A stretch of 53,826 nucleotides of DNA, taken from IMG/VR virus record IMGVR_UViG_2917855067_000007; one strand, written 5' to 3'. This DNA is from a virus (lineage: Duplodnaviria > Heunggongvirae > Uroviricota > Caudoviricetes). Made by a program: the position numbers and the translations under genes. The notes under the pieces were generated by a model. That model ran no database searches. It saw nothing but the letters and a program-made list of their open reading frames with translations, and was not told where the DNA came from. Numbering within the stretch: position 1 is the stretch's first letter; each line of letters begins with the position of its first letter. Positions 5,043-52,458 of this stretch are shown in pieces.

Positions 5043-6233
5043 CTAATCTTTTACCCTGCCACTCGCCAGCGATTCCATATAGTCGGCATACCATTGAAGC
5101 ATTTCCCGGCGTCCATCCAGATAGCGGGCATGATTATATGTGCCACGGATGGTATTTTTATCAACATGTGCAAGCTGGGTTTCGATCCATTCGGTGTTAT
5201 ACCCTTTCTCATACAAAATTGTGCTCATGGTATGTCGGAAACCATGCCCGCAAGCTTTGCCCTTATACCCGAGTCGCTTTATTAGCTGATTAATTGCTCC
5301 TTCACTCATTGGCTTTCGCGGGTCGTTCCGGCCCGGAAAAATGAAAGGATTGCGGCCCGACAACTCTTTTAATTGCCCGAGAATAACCATAGCCTGGCGA
5401 GAAAGCGGGACAACGTGCGGACGTCTTTTCTTCATTCGCTCTTTGGGGATCTCCCACAAGGCATTATCAAAATCAATCTCTGACCACGGGGCCGCGCGTA
5501 ATTCAACCGGACGTAACCCCACAAGAATAAGCAGACGCAGCCCCAAAATAACCTGAACGTTACTTTTTGCCGTCGCCAGCGTCTGGAAAAATTCGGGTAA
5601 CTCTTCGGCTTCCAGATGGGGGAAGTGCTCCCCTTCGTGTCCTTCCATAGCCACAGATAGATCAGGGGCGGGGTTATATTCTGCGCGGGCGGTAACGATC
5701 GCATACTTCCAGACCTCCCCGCACCACTGGCGAACCTTACGGGCCTTTTCAGTCGCTCCCCTATTCTCGATGCGTTTAAGCGTATTCAGCAAATCAAGGG
5801 GCTTTATTTCCGTGATGGGGCGTTTTCCAATCCAAGGGAATATGTCTTTACTGAATGCTTCCAGAATGTCCGAGGCGTACCCCTCAGACCATTTCTTCTG
5901 CCGTTCTGTATGCCACTCTCTGGCGATTTCTTCGAAGGTGTTTTTGATTTGCGCTTCGCGGTTCAATTTTTCTTCCCGCTTCGCTTCGTTCGGGTCGATC
6001 CCCCCAGCCATACCCCTTTTGGCCTCATCTCGTTTCGCCCTGGCATCAGCCAGGGTTACATCGGGATATACCCCCAGCGCCAACAGCTTTTCTTTTCCGG
6101 CTACCCGGTACTTTAAACGCCAGTACCGGGAACCATTGGGATTAACAAGCAGATAAAGCCCACCACCATCGGCCAGTTTATAGGGTTTTTCTTTCGGTTT
6201 GGCCGTATCGACCTGACGGGCATTTAGTTTCAT
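5043..6233 (-). CDS. int: tyrosine integrase, P4-type
   Basis: ATG at 6231-6233 (MKLNARQVDTAKPKEKPYKLADGGGLYLLV); C-terminal R/H/Y catalytic region (HGFRHT); 140 bp from the att repeat. Confidence 0.85.
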   Translation of the reverse strand: MKLNARQVDTAKPKEKPYKLADGGGLYLLVNPNGSRYWRLKYRVAGKEKLLALGVYPDVTLADARAKRDEAKRGMAGGIDPNEAKREEKLNREAQIKNTFEEIAREWHTERQKKWSEGYASDILEAFSKDIFPWIGKRPITEIKPLDLLNTLKRIENRGATEKARKVRQWCGEVWKYAIVTARAEYNPAPDLSVAMEGHEGEHFPHLEAEELPEFFQTLATAKSNVQVILGLRLLILVGLRPVELRAAPWSEIDFDNALWEIPKERMKKRRPHVVPLSRQAMVILGQLKELSGRNPFIFPGRNDPRKPMSEGAINQLIKRLGYKGKACGHGFRHTMSTILYEKGYNTEWIETQLAHVDKNTIRGTYNHARYLDGRREMLQWYADYMESLASGRVKD

Positions 6234-6395
6234 TTGGGGGTATCTCCAGTAGCCCACACAGCATATACCCCCGAATATCCCCCCAAAAGACGTGGATTTT
6301 AGGAGATATTGATAGACGTTAAAACACTATCGGGGGCGCTCAAAGCTAGAGTATATGCGGGTTTGTTGGATTTTAATAGACGGGAAAAGACGTTG

Positions 6396-10614: not shown

Positions 10615-10908
10615 TTATGTTGAACGGATAAATACCCAGACCAGCAGACACGCCACCACCGGCACAGCAAAATCCATCAGGCTTGCTACATCCCACGCGC
10701 GTGGATCAAAACCGCCCCACCACGGCATGTTAATCCGCTTGCCATGCCCGAACATTTCAATCCAGCGATATTCTGCCTGGGTGTGTTCACGCGCAATGAA
10801 GAACGTACAGCCGGCTATCGCTCCGTAAACCCAGTTTCCGGTAAAAAGACCAACCAGTATCTGCGCAGCCACAGCACAAAGTGCATGAAGTAAGGGGCTT
10901 ATATCCAT
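10615..10908 (-). CDS. small integral membrane protein
   Basis: 97 aa, three hydrophobic segments; ATG at 10906-10908 with strong AGGAGG. Confidence 0.45.
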   Translation of the reverse strand: MDISPLLHALCAVAAQILVGLFTGNWVYGAIAGCTFFIAREHTQAEYRWIEMFGHGKRINMPWWGGFDPRAWDVASLMDFAVPVVACLLVWVFIRST

Positions 10909-11914: not shown

Positions 11915-13977
11915 TTAATACTCTCCCCCATTTGCGCATCAGTTAATTCTTTATGCCATATTCTGAAATTCCTGACATGACCAAATAAATGGCGTAAACC
12001 GGCTGTAGTCTGGCCTCCAATACGGATAATTGCGGAGTTCTGAATATATGACCATGTGGTTTTTGTTTCGCTGGATATACGCCCGTTACTTACTGCGCAT
12101 GTAGACTGATCAGACTTTACACGCATCCCCATAACCATTTTTTCAAGTGATGCATTTTCGTTTATCCGTCTGTTAGACCCACCAATATCGCAATAAGGAA
12201 ATCCGTCGTAATCTGCTGAAGAACCGAAGCCAAGAATAATAGCCGCTCCGGTTTGATGACCGCCGGTATCAAAAACACGCGGTGCTGCATTTGGCGTTTT
12301 ATACCAGTTCTTATGTACCTCACAAAGAACCGTAAAAGGAAGATTATAAAGATTATTCTTAATTGGGACTGTAACTATATCGCTTGCCCGCGTTACCGGT
12401 GCCGCCCCCGTAACAATAAAAGATGATGCGCCTGTACCAGCCTCAATCTGTGGAGTGGTTACATCGAGACAATCCCCTGATGCCACCATCTGCCCTGTAT
12501 CCGGAGAATACTGGACGAAACCACCAACCGTATTTTCTGTTGTATCTGCTTTTAATGTAGCCTCAAAAAATATCCAGCCAGTTGCATCTTCCTTAACAGA
12601 CCTTGCTGTAACACGGCTTGTCTGGCCTGTCTTGCTAATTATGCGGGTGGTAAGGTTCAGGCTTGCTGCTCCTATTGATGTCCTTACCTCCCCATCATAA
12701 TGTTCAAATAAAATACGAACGGCGATATTATCAACTTCACTTTTTACCCGACAGGATATAGTTACATACTTTTCGTCACCTGAAGTATCAACCCCTCCGG
12801 TACTTGAATACAGCCCTATAATGGTATGCGCTTTACTTGTGCCAACAATCGAATCCTGTACGACAAACCGGCCATAATTAAAACCGAAACTATCTGTGCC
12901 TGTTTCTGTAACGTCCAGTGAAGTTGACTTATTCCACTTCGAAGGGTCTGTACTGTTCGGGAAGAAGTTCGTTCTTTGCCCCTCAATAAGCAGGCCATCA
13001 CATTCAAATCGTGGCTCGTCAATGGCAGCCTCTGTCAGCACACCAGATTTATTAATGTAAGTTGCTTTTGATGCGCGTTTAAACTTTACAATCTTGTCGC
13101 CAGGCATTGTTATTTCATCATCGCCAATAACAATCCTTTTATATGACGGCGAAAAGCCCGTAATCATATCCAGTGAATCATTAAACGGAATCCAGACATC
13201 AGGCAGCGGCGGAACTATATTCACATATGGTTTTACAGTCACTTCCGCTGCAGCTTCTGCGCGGTCTGCCGCCGCTTCCGAACGTGTCGCCGCCGCGACG
13301 GCTTCATCCTTTTTCTGCCCGGCCTTTGTTGCGTCGGCTGCGGCCTCCTGCGCTTTTGTGGTGGCAGTTTCAGCTGCAGTTGTCGCTAATAATGCTTCAC
13401 GACGTGCTGCGTCAGCATTTTCTGCAGATTTCTCCTCTGACGCCCGGGCATTAGCCTCTGAAAGTGATGCTGCTGTTGCTGCTGTTTCTGATGCTGTTTT
13501 AGAAGATGCAGCAGCTTTCTCGCTGTTGGCTGAATTCGTCTCTGACGTTTTCGCCGCGTTCTTCGATGATGCCGCTGCAGTTTCGGATTTCTTTGCCGCC
13601 GCTGCGCTCTGAGAGGCAGCTTCAGCGTTTCGTGCCGTTTCTTCCAATATTTCCTCAAAACGGCGCAATGCCTCAGGCATGACATCATCTTCCGTCATGG
13701 CACCGAGAAAATCATTCAGCGTACCTGGCCTGGAACCTTCATAGACGGTAATGGTCCCGGCATGTGACGGCGGGAATCCCTCCACCAACAGAATGACGCT
13801 GTACTGACCGTACTCAACATCCATACTGTAACGCCCGGCTTCATCCGGATTTTCAGAGGCCACCGTGTTCACCAGTACCGTGGTGCTGTTACGCTTTGCC
13901 TTCAGTTGAATAGTGCAGTTCTGTATTGGTTTTCCCGCACCATCTTTCAGCACACCTGAGATTTTTACTGCTGCCAT
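11911..13977 (-). CDS. stf: side tail fibre protein
   Basis: N-terminus MAAVKISGVLKDGAGKPIQNCTIQLKAKRNSTTV matches lambda Stf; Ala/Ser-rich shaft; distinct C-terminal globular domain. Confidence 0.85.
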   Translation of the reverse strand: MAAVKISGVLKDGAGKPIQNCTIQLKAKRNSTTVLVNTVASENPDEAGRYSMDVEYGQYSVILLVEGFPPSHAGTITVYEGSRPGTLNDFLGAMTEDDVMPEALRRFEEILEETARNAEAASQSAAAAKKSETAAASSKNAAKTSETNSANSEKAAASSKTASETAATAASLSEANARASEEKSAENADAARREALLATTAAETATTKAQEAAADATKAGQKKDEAVAAATRSEAAADRAEAAAEVTVKPYVNIVPPLPDVWIPFNDSLDMITGFSPSYKRIVIGDDEITMPGDKIVKFKRASKATYINKSGVLTEAAIDEPRFECDGLLIEGQRTNFFPNSTDPSKWNKSTSLDVTETGTDSFGFNYGRFVVQDSIVGTSKAHTIIGLYSSTGGVDTSGDEKYVTISCRVKSEVDNIAVRILFEHYDGEVRTSIGAASLNLTTRIISKTGQTSRVTARSVKEDATGWIFFEATLKADTTENTVGGFVQYSPDTGQMVASGDCLDVTTPQIEAGTGASSFIVTGAAPVTRASDIVTVPIKNNLYNLPFTVLCEVHKNWYKTPNAAPRVFDTGGHQTGAAIILGFGSSADYDGFPYCDIGGSNRRINENASLEKMVMGMRVKSDQSTCAVSNGRISSETKTTWSYIQNSAIIRIGGQTTAGLRHLFGHVRNFRIWHKELTDAQMGESIK

Positions 13978-32899: not shown

Positions 32900-33419
32900 T
32901 CAGCAACCCCGGTATCAGATCATCCAGCGCGGCTGCTTTGTTCATGGCTTTGATGATATCCCGTTTCAGGAAATCAACATGTCGGTTTTCCAGTTCCGGA
33001 AAACGCCGCTGCACCGACAGGGGGATCCCGTCGAGAATACTGGCAATTTCACCTGCGATCCGCGACAGCACGAAAGTACAGAATGCGGTTTCCACCACTT
33101 CAGCGGAGTCTCTGGCATTCTTCAGCTCCTGTGCGTCGGCCTGCGCACGCGTAAGTCGATGGCGTTCGTACTCAATAGTCCCTGGCTGCAGATCTGTCTC
33201 GCTGGCCTGCCGCAGTTCTTCAACCTCCCGGCGCAGCTTTTCGTTCTCAATTTCAGCATCCCTTTCGGCATACCATTTTATGACGGTGGCAGAGTCATAA
33301 AGCACCTCATTACCCTTCCCACCGCCTCGCAGAACGGGCATTCCCTGCTCCTGCCAGTTCTGAATGGTACGGATACTCGCACCGAAAATTTCAGCCAGCT
33401 GCTTTTTGTTGACTTCCAT
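32874..33419 (-). CDS. Nu1: terminase small subunit Nu1
   Basis: 181 aa, starts MEVNKKQLAEIFGASIRTIQNWQEQGMP. Confidence 0.95.
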
Positions 33420-33429
33420 TGTTCATTCC

Positions 33430-33620
33430 ACGGACAAAAACAGAGAAAGGAAACGACAGAGGCCAAAAGGCCTGTTTTCAGCACCTGTCGTTTCCTTTCT
33501 TTTCAGGGGGTGTTTTAAATAAAAACATTAAGTTACGGAGAAGAAGAACGGAAACGCCTTAAACCGGAAAATTTTCATAAATAGCGAAAACCCGCGCGCC
33601 TTCCGCCCCGTAACGCTCAG
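33430..33620. other. cos region (cosB and cosN)
   Basis: reverse complement matches the remembered lambda left end (aaataaaaacattaagtta...cataaatagcgaaaacccgcg); the 12 nt at 33597-33608 (cgccttccgccc) differ from lambda cosN. Confidence 0.7.
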
Positions 33621-33657
33621 GATCACCGGAAAGGACCCGTAAGACAGAAGATCAGGT

Positions 33658-33867
33658 TTACCTACTGTGTAAATCTCCATCCTTCAGCCCTGTCATCAGC
33701 GCCTGATTAACTAACGGCATCAGTTCGTGAACGATGGCAAGAAACTCCAGGAAAAGTTCGTTCTGAGCCTTCTCATCTGCCTCAACCTGTCGCTGCTCGT
33801 ATTCCTTCACCTTACTTTCAAGTTGGTTAATACGTGCATTGAGTGCCTCGAAAACAGCTACTGACAT
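33658..33867 (-). CDS. hypothetical small coiled-coil protein
   Basis: 69 aa from ATG at 33865-33867 (MSVAVFEALNARINQLESKVKEYEQ...). Confidence 0.3.
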   Translation of the reverse strand: MSVAVFEALNARINQLESKVKEYEQRQVEADEKAQNELFLEFLAIVHELMPLVNQALMTGLKDGDLHSR

Positions 33868-34246
33868 ATCTACCTCAAAGCAATAAAAGAAATGCGTGCG
33901 GCCACGGTCGCACAGACCTGAATACACGTCCTGTTTCTTCCACCCCCGCACAAGACTGGCGAGCATGAGGGACAAACCCGCGAATCATAACCGCGCTGAT
34001 GACAGGACTGGCCCGGCTTGTATTGCTTCCAGCCTTCGCTTATGTGGCTTTTGCAATATCCTGACGGATCTGTGGTGGTATTGCGGCAGCCGCGAACACG
34101 GCAGGTTTTTGGGGTTCGTGGGGGCATATGTACTCCAATGAAGAAGCCACCAACATAGCCTCCTCCATTCATCGTGAAACTATTTTCATCTACCCAGTAA
34201 TGAACTCTTTGAAGAGTTGTAATCAATACAACTCGCTAATGGAGAG

Positions 34247-34270
34247 GCTTGTCTCACACGTGAGACAAGC
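34247..34270. repeat. perfect 10 bp inverted repeat with 4 nt spacer
   Basis: gcttgtctca-cacg-tgagacaagc followed by T-rich tract on plus strand. Confidence 0.6.
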
Positions 34271-34349
34271 TTCCTGTTTGATTTACTGGACACTATAGAA
34301 GGACAGAATGCCTTCCTCACTCGAATCACATCAATTAAGGAGGTTCAAC

Positions 34350-34472
34350 ATGTTTCATTCCACAAGTCATCAGGCTGTAATTATGGCAGCATCAGTTTGT
34401 GCCACAGACCTTTTCCGCTTCACTTTGAGCCTGATTCATTTTTATCTGACCGGCTCGCCTCTATCTTTCTAA
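34350..34472 (+). CDS. 40 aa small protein with hydrophobic C-terminus
   Basis: perfect AAGGAGG 6 nt upstream of ATG; opposite strand to the late genes; not in ORF track (under length cutoff). Confidence 0.3.
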   Translation: MFHSTSHQAVIMAASVCATDLFRFTLSLIHFYLTGSPLSF

Positions 34473-34749
34473 TCCCCGCTTTATCCAAATTGTACTGCCA
34501 TAATGCCGACATTCTCTGCAATTGTTGGCTCCGTTTATCCGTTAAAAGGGATATCAGTTAAGTTATCCCGTGTAGGGTATAAGCCATTGTCGAGACCACT
34601 CATTGAATGGTCTCTGCAATAACCGATGTCTTTCCATCAGTCCGCCACCACAAAGAATCTTTTTTGCCATAAGGCTGGAGGTTCATCTTTCAGTGGCTGC
34701 CAGTGTTATTTCCCCACTTTCTGGCTTGGGTTGTTTCGTGGTACTGCCG

Positions 34750-35292
34750 TTAATTAGTGAGTCCGGGGATTACGGTTTGCCCGTGCTGTTCAAGGCGTTC
34801 AATTCTCGCCATTAGCTGAGGCTTCTTAATTTTTCCCCAGCGATTGAGCAGACGGCCAGACATGCTGGCGACATCCTTTTCTTTCATGTACTCCAGCATT
34901 ACGGCGTTTCGCTCTTCTTCAAATTGACGATGACCAACCTGAAGCATGGCGTACATCCAGTTGAATGCGTTGATGTAAGCAATTTTGATACGCATTGCTT
35001 CTTTTTTGGTGTAGGACATAACCAAAAGCATCAACCCATCCTTGCGGAGACGGTAGAATTTTTGCGGCTTACCATTCTGTAACTCATTGTTTTTATAGCA
35101 AAGCTCAAAGTTGAGCTTTGTATCAAACTCAGGAGGGCAAGCTTCTATGGTTCGTTCAATGTCACGAACTACGTTCTTCGGCAGCTTTCCAAATGCTTTT
35201 GCCACCATAAAAGAATCTGTAACCGGATCGTTGTTTGCCACAAAAATCAGATCTCGGAAATCGATGCCGTTAACGATAGTTGGATAATTCAT
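34750..35292 (-). CDS. rha: Rha-family phage regulatory protein
   Basis: 180 aa; N-terminal VTDSFMVAKAFGKLPKNVVRDIERT matches the Rha motif. Confidence 0.65.
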   Translation of the reverse strand: MNYPTIVNGIDFRDLIFVANNDPVTDSFMVAKAFGKLPKNVVRDIERTIEACPPEFDTKLNFELCYKNNELQNGKPQKFYRLRKDGLMLLVMSYTKKEAMRIKIAYINAFNWMYAMLQVGHRQFEEERNAVMLEYMKEKDVASMSGRLLNRWGKIKKPQLMARIERLEQHGQTVIPGLTN

Positions 35293-35445
35293 CAGTGTTC
35301 ACCTTTTAGTGATGAACCTTGTCACACAGGATTCCGGCCCACAGAAAGGCACCGATCACCAAACCGGCATCCTCAAGGGTCATCCTGAAAGGTTCTGTGT
35401 TCATAAGTCGCGCGTGTGAAGCGCGTTTACTGCGGACATAAAAAA

Positions 35446-35464
35446 AGCCCCGCATCGCGAGGCT
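35446..35464 (-). terminator. terminator downstream of Rz/Rz1
   Basis: imperfect GC hairpin followed by a 7-U run on the minus strand. Confidence 0.5.
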
Positions 35465-35495
35465 CATTAAATTGACTTTGTGATTTGCAAAAAAA

Positions 35496-35933
35496 TTATT
35501 TCAGGCATTGCGTCCTGATGTACTCCTGCAGGTAGTTAACCTGCGCGGTTATCTTGTCGATTCCACTTCGGAGACGGTAATAATTGAGTTCAGCATCTGC
35601 TGTAAGTCTTGGGCTTTCTCCATCGCCCATGCCGCTGGCTCCGGTCGTTGACTTTGCACAGGTGGCGGCGACTTGCAGGCGCTTACGCCCAGCAGAAACA
35701 TCAGCACGAAGACTTTCGATAGTAGCGTTAGCATCAGCAAGCTCCTTTGTATATCTGGCGTCGAGTTCTGCTACATCACGTTGACGCTTCTGCATGTCAG
35801 CGATAATGGATGCGGCCTTATCACGCTGCTTTTTGTAGGTGATGGCGTTATCACGGTAATGATTAACAGCCCATGACAGACAGACGATGATGCAGATAAC
35901 CAGAGCGGAGATAATCGCGGTGACTCTGCTCAT
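35496..35933 (-). CDS. Rz: i-spanin Rz
   Basis: starts [34 protein letters not shown]; N-terminal TM plus coiled coil; overlaps R stop (ATGA). Confidence 0.9.
35549..35734 (-). CDS. Rz1: o-spanin Rz1 lipoprotein, embedded in Rz
   Basis: +1 frame inside Rz; lipobox LLGVSAC then Pro-rich mature region. Confidence 0.8.
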
Positions 35934-37114: not shown

Positions 37115-37316
37115 TTTGAGATTGTGGTGCTTTTTGTGGTAGTTACCCACTTACGCACTTTGTATTGCTATGCCAGCAGTTAGCTTCTACTGTAAAACTA
37201 TTCATGCAGCAAACCTGCACTTCACCACAAAATGGGATTCAATACCCACAACTCTATCTGCATCTCTACTCAGGCATCAGCCTTCTTCGTTATCGTATAC
37301 AGACAAGCTATGAATT

Positions 37317-37532
37317 TTAATCAGTAATAATGACATTTGCTGCTGCAGGACCTTTAGCACCACTCTCTACAGAGAAGGTAACCTTTTGGCCTTCAAATAA
37401 GGTTCGATAATTATCATTCTGAATTGCAGAAAAATGCACAAACACATCTTTACTACCATCAACAGGAGAAATAAAGCCAAAACCTTTATCAGCGTTAAAC
37501 CATTTTACTAAACCAGTCATTTTATTTGACAT
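37317..37532 (-). CDS. cold shock protein (CspA family)
   Basis: 71 aa [38 protein letters not shown]...; RNP motifs. Confidence 0.9.
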
Positions 37533-37774
37533 TCTACATTCCTTAACTTGAGCCTTTCGGCATAAATGATTTGTATAACAGAAACGACTTCGTACTTAAT
37601 TGGAGAGACTCAAAGAAGGAATAAGTGAATAACACCTGAAATGAGAACTGCTTTAGTAAACTACTTCGTATATCGTCTGTTCTTCAAACCGACGCAGCCA
37701 TTAACGCATAGTTGTACACTTGGAAGCAATGTTTATTTTAGACATCCAGCCACCTCCCCATTTAAAACACAAAA

Positions 37775-37792
37775 ACCCGCTCATTAGCGGGT
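37775..37792 (-). terminator. tR'-like terminator downstream of the putative late promoter
   Basis: hairpin acccgct-catt-agcgggt followed by UUUUUGUGUUUU on the minus strand. Confidence 0.6.
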
Positions 37793-37900
37793 TTTCTACT
37801 TTTTCTCAACACCGGACATACAAAGCCCATCGTTGAGAAAATCCTATCCATATTTTTTGAAAAATGCAAGCATCATGTCGATATCTTCGGCGAAAATTAT
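37793..37900 (-). promoter_or_regulatory. putative late promoter pR' and qut region
   Basis: minus-strand TTGCAT, 17 nt, TAGGAT just downstream of the Q stop; 10 nt inverted repeat TTTCTCAAC/GTTGAGAAA before the terminator. Confidence 0.3.
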
Positions 37901-51006: not shown

Positions 51007-51328
51007 GGCCTGTCAGTTTCTCAAGATATCCAGACCTACCGCTACCAACTGGATACGAACAGGCCGCCTACAGGCAACACGCAAAGACCCCACTAAACCA
51101 AAATCTCCTTACCTCACAACGCGACAAGCCTGCATTGCGGCGCTTCAGTCTCCGCTGCATACTATCAAGGTGAGCGCGGGTGATGGCATAACAGAGGAAA
51201 GAAAATGTCACTCTTCCGCAGAAGTGAAATATGGTACGCCAGTTTCACATTGCCGAACGGTAAAAGATTTAAACAGTCTCTTGGAACAAAGGACAAAAGG
51301 CAGGCAACAGAGCTCCATGACAAGCTAA
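50978..51328 (+). CDS. xis: excisionase-like DNA-binding protein
   Basis: ATG at 50978 with AGAGG upstream; [29 protein letters not shown]; overlaps the int start, so the real 3' end is uncertain. Confidence 0.5.
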
Positions 51329-52368
51329 AGGCTGAAGCATGGCGGGTCAGCAAACTTGGTGAAATACCTGATATGACGTTCGAGGAAGCGTGTGTCAGGT
51401 GGCTTGAAGAGAAAGCACATAAAAAATCACTGGACGATGACAAAAGCCGGATCGGATTCTGGCTTCAACATTTCGCAGGGATGCAACTAAGAGACATTAC
51501 TGAATCAAAAATTTATTCAGCAATTCAGAAAATGACGAACCGGCGTCATGAGGAAAACTGGAAACTCAGGGCAGAAGCATGCAGAAAAAAAGGGAAACCT
51601 GTTCCAGAATACACGCCAAAACCAGCGTCCGTTGCAACGAAGGCAACGCATCTTTCATTTATAAAGGCCCTGCTAAGAGCCGCAGAGCGTGAATGGAAAA
51701 TGCTGGATAAGGCACCAATTATTAAAGTGCCTCAACCAAAGAATAAACGGATCCGCTGGCTGGAGCCTCATGAAGCACAAAGGCTGATTGATGAATGTCC
51801 GGAGCCATTAAAGTCTGTTGTTGAATTTGCACTGGCAACAGGTTTAAGACGCTCGAACATCATCAACCTTGAATGGCAACAAATAGACATGCAGCGCCGG
51901 GTGGCATGGATAAACCCGGAAGAGAGTAAATCAAACCGCGCAATTGGCGTTGCGCTGAATGATACTGCATGTCGCGTATTGAAAAAACAAATAGGGAATC
52001 ATCACCGTTGGGTATTTGTGTATAAGGAAAGCTGTACCAAACCAGACGGAACGAAAGCGCCAACAGTAAGGAAGATGCGGTATGACGCAAACACAGCCTG
52101 GAAAGCGGCGCTGAGACGAGCTGGTATTGATGATTTCAGATTTCACGACTTGAGACACACCTGGGCAAGTTGGCTGGTTCAAGCCGGAGTCCCGTTGTCA
52201 GTGTTACAGGAAATGGGTGGCTGGGAGTCTATCGAAATGGTTCGTCGATATGCTCACCTCGCGCCTAATCACCTTACCGAACACGCACGGCAAATAGACT
52301 CGATTCTGAACCCATCGGTCCCAAATTTGTCCCAGTCAAAAAATAAGGAAGGTACTAATGATGTGTAA
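51205..52368 (+). CDS. int: tyrosine integrase of the lambdoid prophage
   Basis: 387 aa; C-terminal catalytic R...[10 protein letters not shown]...Y; ends 15 bp from the tRNA 3' end. Confidence 0.9.
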
Positions 52369-52379
52369 CTTATTGATTT

Positions 52380-52428
52380 AAATGGTGCCGATAATAGGAG
52401 TCGAACCTACGACCTTCGCATTACGAAT
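52380..52428. repeat. attR core within thrW
   Basis: 49 bp identical to 6396-6444. Confidence 0.85.
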
Positions 52429-52458
52429 GCGCTGCTCTACCAACTGAGCTATATCGGC
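52383..52458 (-). tRNA. thrW: tRNA-Thr (anticodon CGU)
   Basis: reverse complement gccgatatagctcagttggtagagcagcgcattcgtaatgcgaaggtcgtaggttcgactcctattatcggcacca; cloverleaf with CGT anticodon and CCA end. Confidence 0.9.

Follow-up and report, generated by a model that had tools for sequence, protein, structure and literature searches.

The DNA analysed here (the window) is the whole 53,826-nt stretch of IMG/VR virus record IMGVR_UViG_2917855067_000007, assigned to the Caudoviricetes, and it contains a lambda-like prophage with its late genes on the minus strand. Between Rz and cos, on the opposite strand, positions 34244-34472 appear to form a self-contained expression cassette made of K1E-type regulatory parts of the SP6 group of lytic phages, which is probably an undescribed anti-phage trap. 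An RNA hairpin (34244..34273), a promoter of the single-subunit phage RNA polymerase (RNAP) type (34280..34302), a predicted 52-nt leader (34298..34349) and a 40-codon open reading frame (ORF), ORF40 (34350..34472), follow one another on the plus strand. A preliminary description of this DNA had reported a perfect 10-bp palindrome at 34247-34270 and a 40-amino-acid ORF behind an ideally spaced AAGGAGG, on the strand opposite the late genes and at the position of lambda bor, and all of these features are where it placed them. The gap between palindrome and ORF, which it left empty, holds a predicted SP6-group promoter, and with it the expected source of the gene's expression shifts.

The promoter GATTTACTGGACACTATAGAAGG (34280-34302, plus strand) spans -18 to +5, with the initiating G (+1) at 34298, and is identical at 23 of 23 positions to the K1E (Vectrevirus) promoter upstream of gene 15 (~13923-13945). 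It was spotted through a conserved TATAG ~50 nt upstream of the ORF when the E. coli and Klebsiella versions of the locus were compared. Scored with a matrix of the 11 K1E promoters, it reaches 36.9 bits; genuine K1E sites lie at 21-36.8 bits (leave-one-out), and the next-best site in the 53.8-kb window at 9.4 bits. With the relaxed consensus pattern, 0 matches are expected by chance. The sequence fits the ~23-bp consensus (-17 to +6) with its core CACTATAG and initiating G. Within the specificity region (-12 to -8), Vectrevirus promoters read CTGGA and those of SP6 GGTGA, and the window's ACTGGACAC is the K1E consensus. A 31-nt query against Vectrevirus genomes returns 27/28 identity at 8-10 places per genome, and in IMG/VR the exact 23-mer is found only in Vectrevirus contigs (11) and in the cassette (65 temperate-phage contigs). 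An SP6-related RNAP transcribes in vitro from TATTTACTGGACACTATAGGAGGA (PMC13029058).

The palindrome upstream of this promoter (gcttgtctca at 34247-34256, loop cacg, tgagacaagc at 34261-34270) extends to a stem of 13 pairs with a CACG loop, six of the pairs being G-C and one G.U. Of perfect repeats with arms of 10 bp or more and a loop of up to 10 nt, the window has 3 against 0.57 expected, so the repeat alone is mildly unusual and its reality rests on conservation and covariation. Its core GTCTCACACGTGAGAC (34251-34266) is identical at 16 of 16 positions to the K1E copy at 10750, and belongs to a motif, GTC[CT][CA]AC-NN-G[TG][GT][AG]GAC, that is repeated in SP6-group phages, with 8 copies in K1E (632, 6805, 6987, 8005, 9573, 10750, 15901 and 32586), 9 in SP6 and 8 in the Klebsiella SP6-like phage K1-ULIP33. 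The types differ between phages: GTCTCAC-NN-GTGAGAC in K1E, GTC[CT]AAC-NN-GTTGGAC in SP6 and GTCCAAC-NN-GTTGGAC in K1-ULIP33. Many copies occupy equivalent positions across the three genomes and most are intergenic; one lies within the primase/helicase gene, and there are copies near both genome ends. Three of the K1E hairpins (6805, 6987 and 15901) stand 14-20 nt upstream of promoters, as in the window. In its flanks and in the spacing to the promoter, the window hairpin matches K1E 15901/15948, and the flanks ggctt/aagc also resemble those at K1E 9573 and 32586.

Conservation of the palindrome in related phages, proposed as a check in the preliminary description, was borne out. Over 33 distinct phage and prophage copies of the 13-pair stem, 82.3% of cells pair, compared with 71.2% in shuffled alignments (0/500 reach the observed value) and 27-43% in slid-partner controls. 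Covariation scores 0.36, versus 0.19 in shuffles (again 0/500 reach it), and G.U pairs are frequent on the sense strand. These patterns place the action of the hairpin in RNA, on the strand of the ORF. A dimer-bound DNA operator, half of what had been suggested for the palindrome, is rejected because the G.U pairs and the compensatory changes in the outer stem indicate RNA pairing.

The other half of that suggestion, a terminator, is a candidate role. On the plus strand the hairpin folds at -22.9 kcal/mol (z = -4.75), a U-rich, interrupted tail, CUGUUUGAUUU, follows the stem, and a consensus scan marks it as terminator-like; by these features it looks like a terminator. Rho-independent terminators have been predicted at such positions in SP6-like phages (PMC4837284). 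The Klebsiella hairpins that we call H1 have no U-tail. A terminator of the late operon on the minus strand was considered and rejected: that strand has no U-tract and a weaker fold (-18.4 kcal/mol, z = -4.17). The hairpin lies upstream of +1 and is therefore outside the transcript expected from the phage polymerase. Rfam has nothing at the element, either over the whole window at the gathering threshold or over 33400-35600 at an E-value threshold, and our literature search, which did not extend to the SP6 genome paper's own text, found no paper with SP6-group hairpin sequences and no described role for this repeat, which may be a terminator, a processing site or something else.

The predicted start, G34298, is separated from the ATG by 52 nt. 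Compared from +6 up to the start codon, the leader aligns best with that of the K1E major-capsid gene g31 (z = 4.8), with 2.7 for that of SP6 g32 and ~0 for other promoters, and both the window leader and the K1E capsid leader terminate in TAAGGAGGTT. A possible 5' stem pairs GAAGG (34298-34302) with CCTTC (34311-34315). The Shine-Dalgarno sequence AAGGAGG (34337..34343), separated by a 6-nt spacer from the ATG at 34350, is near-invariant in E. coli variants, one of which reads AAGGAAG, and a strong Shine-Dalgarno is also present in most Klebsiella-type relatives. It precedes the proposed effector, ORF40 (MFHSTSHQAVIMAASVCATDLFRFTLSLIHFYLTGSPLSF), which has 40 codons and a stop; an in-frame ATG at 34308 would lengthen the product to 54 amino acids.

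ORF40 is open and 40 codons long in all 21 distinct variants, which come from 151 loci. In codons 21-40 the ratio of nonsynonymous to synonymous polymorphism (pN/pS) is 0.06 in the ORF40 frame versus 2.85 in the antisense frame of an overlapping o-spanin gene. The overlapping o-spanin was considered as the sole cause of conservation in the C-terminal half and set aside, as this substitution pattern favours the ORF40 frame. The hydropathy of the peptide, placed at its C-terminus in the preliminary description, turns out to be moderate throughout (grand average of hydropathy 0.80), and the best 17-residue window, with a value of 1.51, covers residues 10-26. On sequence evidence, ORF40 behaves like a real small hydrophobic protein gene.

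Database labels for ORF40 are only ‘hypothetical’ or ‘uncharacterised’, and Pfam, PHROGs, NCBIfam and PADLOC-DB 2.0 hold no family for it. Six Klebsiella-type peptides likewise have no NCBIfam match and hit 0 PADLOC-DB 2.0 families. A profile search of 1.84 billion proteins recovered the same narrow family and one 38-amino-acid relative. In a tblastn search against phages there was no ORF40 homologue in any lytic phage, and the profile run against genome contigs gave a single spurious match, in a Thermoguttaceae metagenome-assembled genome.

So, which polymerase would read this promoter? There is no single-subunit RNAP candidate among the window's 15 ORFs of at least 300 amino acids. The 10 largest were scanned and prove to be host genes or lambda-type proteins (structural, replication and integrase); the 5 unscanned ORFs (303-740 amino acids) are shorter than the 874-875-amino-acid polymerases of K1E and SP6. 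With no cognate RNAP in the genome, the promoter is therefore of SP6-group type by sequence and not part of such a phage, and use of the promoter by the prophage itself is rejected. Host transcription fares little better. A consensus scan of the plus strand from 33400 to 35471 found no sigma-70 promoter, and with relaxed settings the best pair, TTTACT and CAGAAT separated by 16 nt, matches at 8 of 12 positions at most, too few for us to retain a sigma-70 promoter as the driver of ORF40. The earlier suggestion of a small membrane protein or toxin expressed in the lysogen is thus split by these results: the intact frame (21/21) and the low pN/pS (0.06) speak for a small hydrophobic gene, and the lack of a credible sigma-70 promoter speaks against lysogen expression.

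The cassette is common. We found it in 687 of 5426 complete E. coli genomes (12.7%, ~ 1 in 8). In E. coli the exact K1E-type promoter is present at most loci, combined with either a K1E-type or an SP6-type hairpin, and the 23-mer is unchanged in most examined loci as against ~28% divergence of the adjoining N-terminal codons. The cassette type of Shigella phage SfIV pairs an SP6-type hairpin with ATTTAGGTGACACTTTAGAAG, which follows the SP6 consensus except at -3, scores 32.1 bits on an SP6 matrix and has the SP6 consensus, AGGTGACAC, in its specificity region. The segment comprising the HNH endonuclease 5' end, hairpin, promoter and leader is duplicated in tandem in some E. coli prophages (L007 2560-3190, L010 and L020), and in the upstream copy the hairpin, promoter and Shine-Dalgarno have all decayed. 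LH85-a (L001 3510-3850) carries just one cassette, in which hairpin and promoter are degenerate (CAGTATAGGGGG).

More distant relatives were reached by scanning with the conserved 3' end of the o-spanin gene, which gave 51 distinct loci, mostly of a Klebsiella type. An ORF for a hydrophobic peptide of 32-41 amino acids ends at the same place in 46 of the 51, with a strong Shine-Dalgarno in nearly all. The Klebsiella-type peptides are very diverse in sequence, and most have a transmembrane-grade segment. Upstream of them lie, in order, hairpin H1, promoter slot P1, a second hairpin H2 (TGTCCAAC-NN-GTTGGACA) and two further promoter-like slots, so arranged that each array holds one to three T7-group promoter-like sites of different specificity. 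Slot P1 alternates between T7-like, K11-like, T3-like and other sequences. The core motif [CG]A[CG][TA]ATAG occurs 78 times in the 17.8 kb upstream of the ORFs, always on the ORF strand (4.38/kb), versus 0.03/kb elsewhere in the loci.

These array elements have counterparts in lytic phages. For the T7-like form of P1, matching promoters are found in 333 T7-like phage records, with 7-11 sites apiece in most among the matches listed; the K11-like form has matches in 145 records, of which 135 are named as Klebsiella phages. Matches to H2 come from SP6-like and related lytic phages of Klebsiella, Proteus, Pectobacterium and Salmonella, many of which have 3-7 such sites. As judged from sequence variants, this is a diversifying locus with host-matched promoters in E. 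coli and Klebsiella prophages. The arrays occur in IMG/VR temperate-phage contigs (L167-L227, mostly Klebsiella-type) ~100-450 nt upstream of the motif ATCCCCGCCTTATCCAGATTGCACTG, and two hairpin types are found in them, TTGTCTC-N6-GAGACAA and the H2 type. Slot P2 reads TTAATAGTGGCGAGTATAGA, and slot P3 (GGGATAAGTTACACAATAGAACG) gave only weak matches.

Within the prophage, the cassette sits in the lambda bor slot, between Rha/Rz and cos and opposite in orientation to the late genes. On the minus strand these are holin S (36642-36427), endolysin R (36427-35930), Rz (35945-35496) and a Rha-family gene (35292-34750) on one side, and the packaging genes Nu1 (33419-32874) and terminase A (32899-30974) on the other. 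The prophage also encodes a lambda-family portal, tape measure and J protein, replication protein O, and an integrase beside tRNA-Thr. In some relatives bor/iss lies directly 3' of the cassette on the same strand.

The cassette is carried by a mosaic block (33981..34511) that is common to HK97-like prophages (SfIV ~84%, vB_EcoS-640R1 93.6%). The sequence on either side of it here is unrelated and of lambda/P22 type; from 34513 on, matches are to the Rha region of P22-like phages. The late-strand gene order of HK97-like phages is holin, endolysin, i-/o-spanin, intergenic region, HNH endonuclease and terminase. At one edge of the block is an HNH endonuclease relic of HK97 type (33981..34127, minus strand), the 5' end of the gene with ~50 codons (MPPRTPKTC...), beyond which the gene has been replaced, assigned by phrog_144 and by alignment with SfIV and 640R1. 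The phrog_144 match covers residues 31-82 only, and RefSeq labels the equivalent gene ‘HNH endonuclease, incomplete’. At the other edge, the last ~30 codons of a LysC/Rz1-type o-spanin (...ALWQYNLDKAGIRKIEASRSDKNESGSK*; 34420..34511, minus strand, within an ORF at 34420-34521) were recognized by comparison with the annotated lysC and Rz1 translations of FWSEC0010, SfIV and RCIP0114. This relic runs antisense to the final 17 codons of ORF40 and to its stop. The o-spanin gene is intact in the native HK97-like context. The cassette is complete in the window although both flanking genes of the block are truncated.

What might such a cassette do? We propose that the hairpin, with its U-rich tail, most likely stops upstream transcription, and that in the lysogen the cassette, lacking a usable sigma-70 promoter and shielded from transcription upstream, would be essentially silent. 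When a K1E- or SP6-like phage infects, its newly made RNAP would recognize the resident promoter and initiate at 34298, and the small peptide would be strongly expressed through the capsid-like leader and AAGGAGG. The peptide may then act at the membrane, either killing or arresting the infected cell or blocking the invader, by abortive infection or exclusion, and the lysogen's kin and the prophage would be protected. The parts, their identity with those of lytic phages, their orientation, their distribution and their host-matched variation are shown by sequence, and transcription by the invader's polymerase is the inference that we consider likely. A defensive or toxic role for the peptide is evenly balanced between right and wrong, and we lean slightly towards the reading as a whole, a cassette fired by a phage RNAP that yields a small membrane-active peptide for abortive infection or exclusion.

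Extended to the Klebsiella loci, the proposal describes a ‘promoter trap’, in which exchangeable promoter arrays, with their hairpins, copied from T7/SP6-type lytic phages of the same host are wired to a tiny membrane-active peptide. The invader's RNAP would be the sensor and cis-acting DNA the specificity determinant, which could be updated by module swapping: K1E/SP6 types in E. coli, and T7/K11/T3 types (up to three in tandem) in Klebsiella. We give this generalization an even chance.

Several observations weigh against the proposal of an invader-fired peptide. Codons 1-20 of ORF40 are hypervariable (pN/pS 1.45), without purifying selection. PLSF-stop, at the end of the frame, is antisense to IRKIE, a conserved spanin motif, and the o-spanin motif CNLDKAGIRKIE on the other strand partly explains the conservation of these codons. 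The best-window hydrophobicity of ORF40, 1.51, compares with 1.9-2.6 for most Klebsiella-type peptides; the peptide is only moderately hydrophobic and therefore has no obvious transmembrane helix. The weak sigma-70-like pair overlaps the phage promoter and may allow some host expression. Some variants carry non-consensus promoter bases (-3T in the SfIV type; CAGTATAG; CACTACAG) that may weaken those promoters. A lone promoter on the chromosome has to compete with the many carried by replicating phage DNA, and host DNA is degraded by T7-like phages. That the hairpin mimics the phage sequence so closely points to copying from a phage genome more than to any need for that exact sequence.

The alternative that survives best is a recombination scar, in which a short SP6-like piece with hairpin and promoter was captured and is functionless, the ORF being incidental. 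Only ~110 nt resemble lytic-phage DNA, the block lies between two truncated genes in the window, some relatives have decayed or duplicated copies (LH85-a, L007 copy A), and promoter bases are mutated in some variants. We nonetheless regard a scar as unlikely. The 23-mer has stayed unchanged in most loci next to N-terminal codons that diverged by ~28%, and promoter types and arrays are host-matched and differ by lineage, always facing the small ORF, with a Shine-Dalgarno in nearly all loci. The frame is unbroken in all 151 loci and has a pN/pS of 0.06 in its C-terminal half, and the cassette is present in 12.7% of complete E. coli genomes.

A second possibility, decidedly unlikely in our judgement, keeps the gene and discards the invader: ORF40 would be a bor-like lysogen moron or a type I toxin expressed by host RNAP, the palindrome its terminator or operator, and the likeness to phage promoters irrelevant. 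The absence of a sigma-70 promoter in the scan of the plus strand from 33400 to 35471 (relaxed best 8/12), and a 23/23 match to a K1E promoter that cannot be chance, stand in the way of this account, as do the G.U pairs for an operator and the lack of any Pfam, NCBIfam, PHROG, PADLOC or Rfam family or evident antisense small RNA gene. It draws on the position and orientation, which are those of lambda bor, with bor/iss directly downstream in relatives, on the strong Shine-Dalgarno and a small hydrophobic peptide of type I toxin size, and on the weak sigma-70-like pair.

Equally doubtful is a version in which an invader's RNAP does fire the promoter and the product is the RNA or the act of transcription itself, for instance through a long antisense transcript across the spanin and lysis genes and further on, or through head-on interference, with the ORF secondary. 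In its native context the promoter is directed antisense towards the 3' end of the o-spanin gene; here, likewise antisense, it faces Rha/Rz/R/S. No terminator-like hairpin lies on the plus strand between the ORF stop at 34472 and 35527, and most host terminators are read through by T7-type phage RNAPs. Yet a Shine-Dalgarno at fixed spacing, a capsid-like leader and an open frame for 32-41 amino acids are kept in nearly all lineages even where the peptides are unrelated, which argues against an RNA-only function, since that would need none of them, and the downstream content varies (spanin, bor/iss, Rha) against a constant ORF. Finally, a processing or stabilizing hairpin of the late operon, unrelated to the ORF, is very improbable: the palindrome does lie within the late transcript between o-spanin and HNH/terminase in native contexts and does fold on the minus strand (-18.4 kcal/mol, z = -4.17), but the plus-strand fold is more stable, its G.U pairs would become A.C mismatches on the minus strand, no U-tract follows there, and in SP6-group phages the motif lies on the strand that is transcribed, where it accompanies promoters at this same distance.

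How, then, does a cassette read by an invader's polymerase compare with known systems? A literature search that included the exact promoter and hairpin strings found no description of it. The SP6-group lytic phages (Autographiviridae, Molineuxvirinae; K1E/K1-5 Vectrevirus, SP6 Zindervirus) share the promoter (23/23), the hairpin (16/16), the spacing between them and the capsid-like leader. Unlike those phages, the host of the cassette is a temperate prophage without a single-subunit RNAP, its gene has no homologue there, and it is a single unit compared with ~10 per genome.

Morons are autonomous units in the late region that are expressed in the lysogen from host sigma-70 promoters. The cassette resembles lambdoid morons (lambda bor and lom, HK97 gp15) in its slot, opposite orientation and compact combination of regulatory element, gene and hairpin, whereas its only good promoter is that of a foreign phage RNAP, and it has no sequence relation to Bor (no Pfam or PHROG match). 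Type I toxins (Hok, TisB, ZorO, DinQ, Ldr) are alike in size (32-41 amino acids), hydrophobic helix-like composition and strong translation signal, a comparison made for scale only. ORF40 differs from type I toxin-antitoxin systems in having no homology to a curated family, and its control appears to lie in transcription by a foreign polymerase. Neither an antisense RNA antitoxin gene nor a long folded 5' untranslated region was identified and Rfam has no match in 33400-35600, a dedicated small RNA promoter lying outside what was sought. The only antisense transcript expected over ORF40 is the late mRNA of the prophage across the relic spanin end.

The promoters of P2 and P4 offer a parallel in logic, since resident promoters there respond only to a factor from another phage. 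P2 Ogr/P4 delta late promoters and helper-induced satellites or phage-inducible chromosomal islands are like the cassette in this respect. In those systems, however, activators work on host RNAP in the service of satellite propagation, whereas the cassette would be read directly by the invader's RNAP, its cargo is one tiny peptide, and the responder is not the invader's satellite. Expression vectors of the pET type run from terminator to T7 promoter to g10 leader to gene, and Djordjevic et al. reportedly engineered, in 1997, a Lactococcus suicide cassette triggered by phage, with a phage-specific promoter and a lethal gene. Such constructs share with the cassette the order of terminator, promoter, capsid leader with Shine-Dalgarno and cargo, and the proposed invader-triggered logic; they are man-made, and the locus described here is natural, widespread and diversifying. 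The cassette shares one trait with each of bor-type morons, type I toxins, P2/P4 and engineered cassettes, and fails their defining features.

If the proposal is right, infection would be recognized without a sensor protein, with a 23-bp promoter copied from the enemy making the enemy's RNAP the trigger. This would constitute a new class of abortive-infection or exclusion system with protein-free recognition, and would explain an unannotated locus that ~1/8 of complete E. coli genomes and many Klebsiella prophages carry. Prophage-dependent resistance to therapeutic phages of the K1E/K1-5/SP6-like and T7/K11-like kinds would be predicted, and host range would become partly readable from promoters. 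An arms race may be envisaged in which prophages swap promoters and lytic phages change polymerase specificity. A family of very small effector peptides also becomes available for study.

Other features of the window lie outside the cassette. A 105-amino-acid ORF (33658-33975, minus strand) adjoins cos and overlaps the HNH relic; its probable true start is internal (MSVAVFEALNARINQLESK...), and it has weak PHROG matches only (phrog_2571). On the other side of the block, 34513-34750 is a gene-poor 240-bp stretch common to P22-like phages (Sf101, CUS-3), with an imperfect 17-nt inverted repeat at 34586-34620. The Rha gene holds a perfect 10-bp inverted repeat, CAAAGCTCAA..TTGAGCTTTG, at 35099-35120, and a terminator-like hairpin with a T-run lies directly 3' of Rz on the minus strand (35445-35465), within a 53-amino-acid ORF. 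Upstream of the lysis genes, Rfam identifies a cspA thermoregulator at 37301-37693 (minus strand, 155.9 bits), the leader of a prophage cold-shock gene, and a perfect bidirectional terminator-like hairpin occupies 37772-37795 (AAAACCCGC...GCGGGTTTT). The plus-strand integrase adjoins tRNA-Thr(CGT) (52383-52458, minus strand) in the region 51205-52458, with an aldehyde dehydrogenase gene next, and this junction is probably an attachment end of the prophage. A second integrase, of P4 type with Arm-DNA-bind_3, Phage_int_M and Phage_integrase domains, is encoded at 5043-6257 (minus strand), outside the lambda-like prophage, and hints at a further integrated element on the left of the window.

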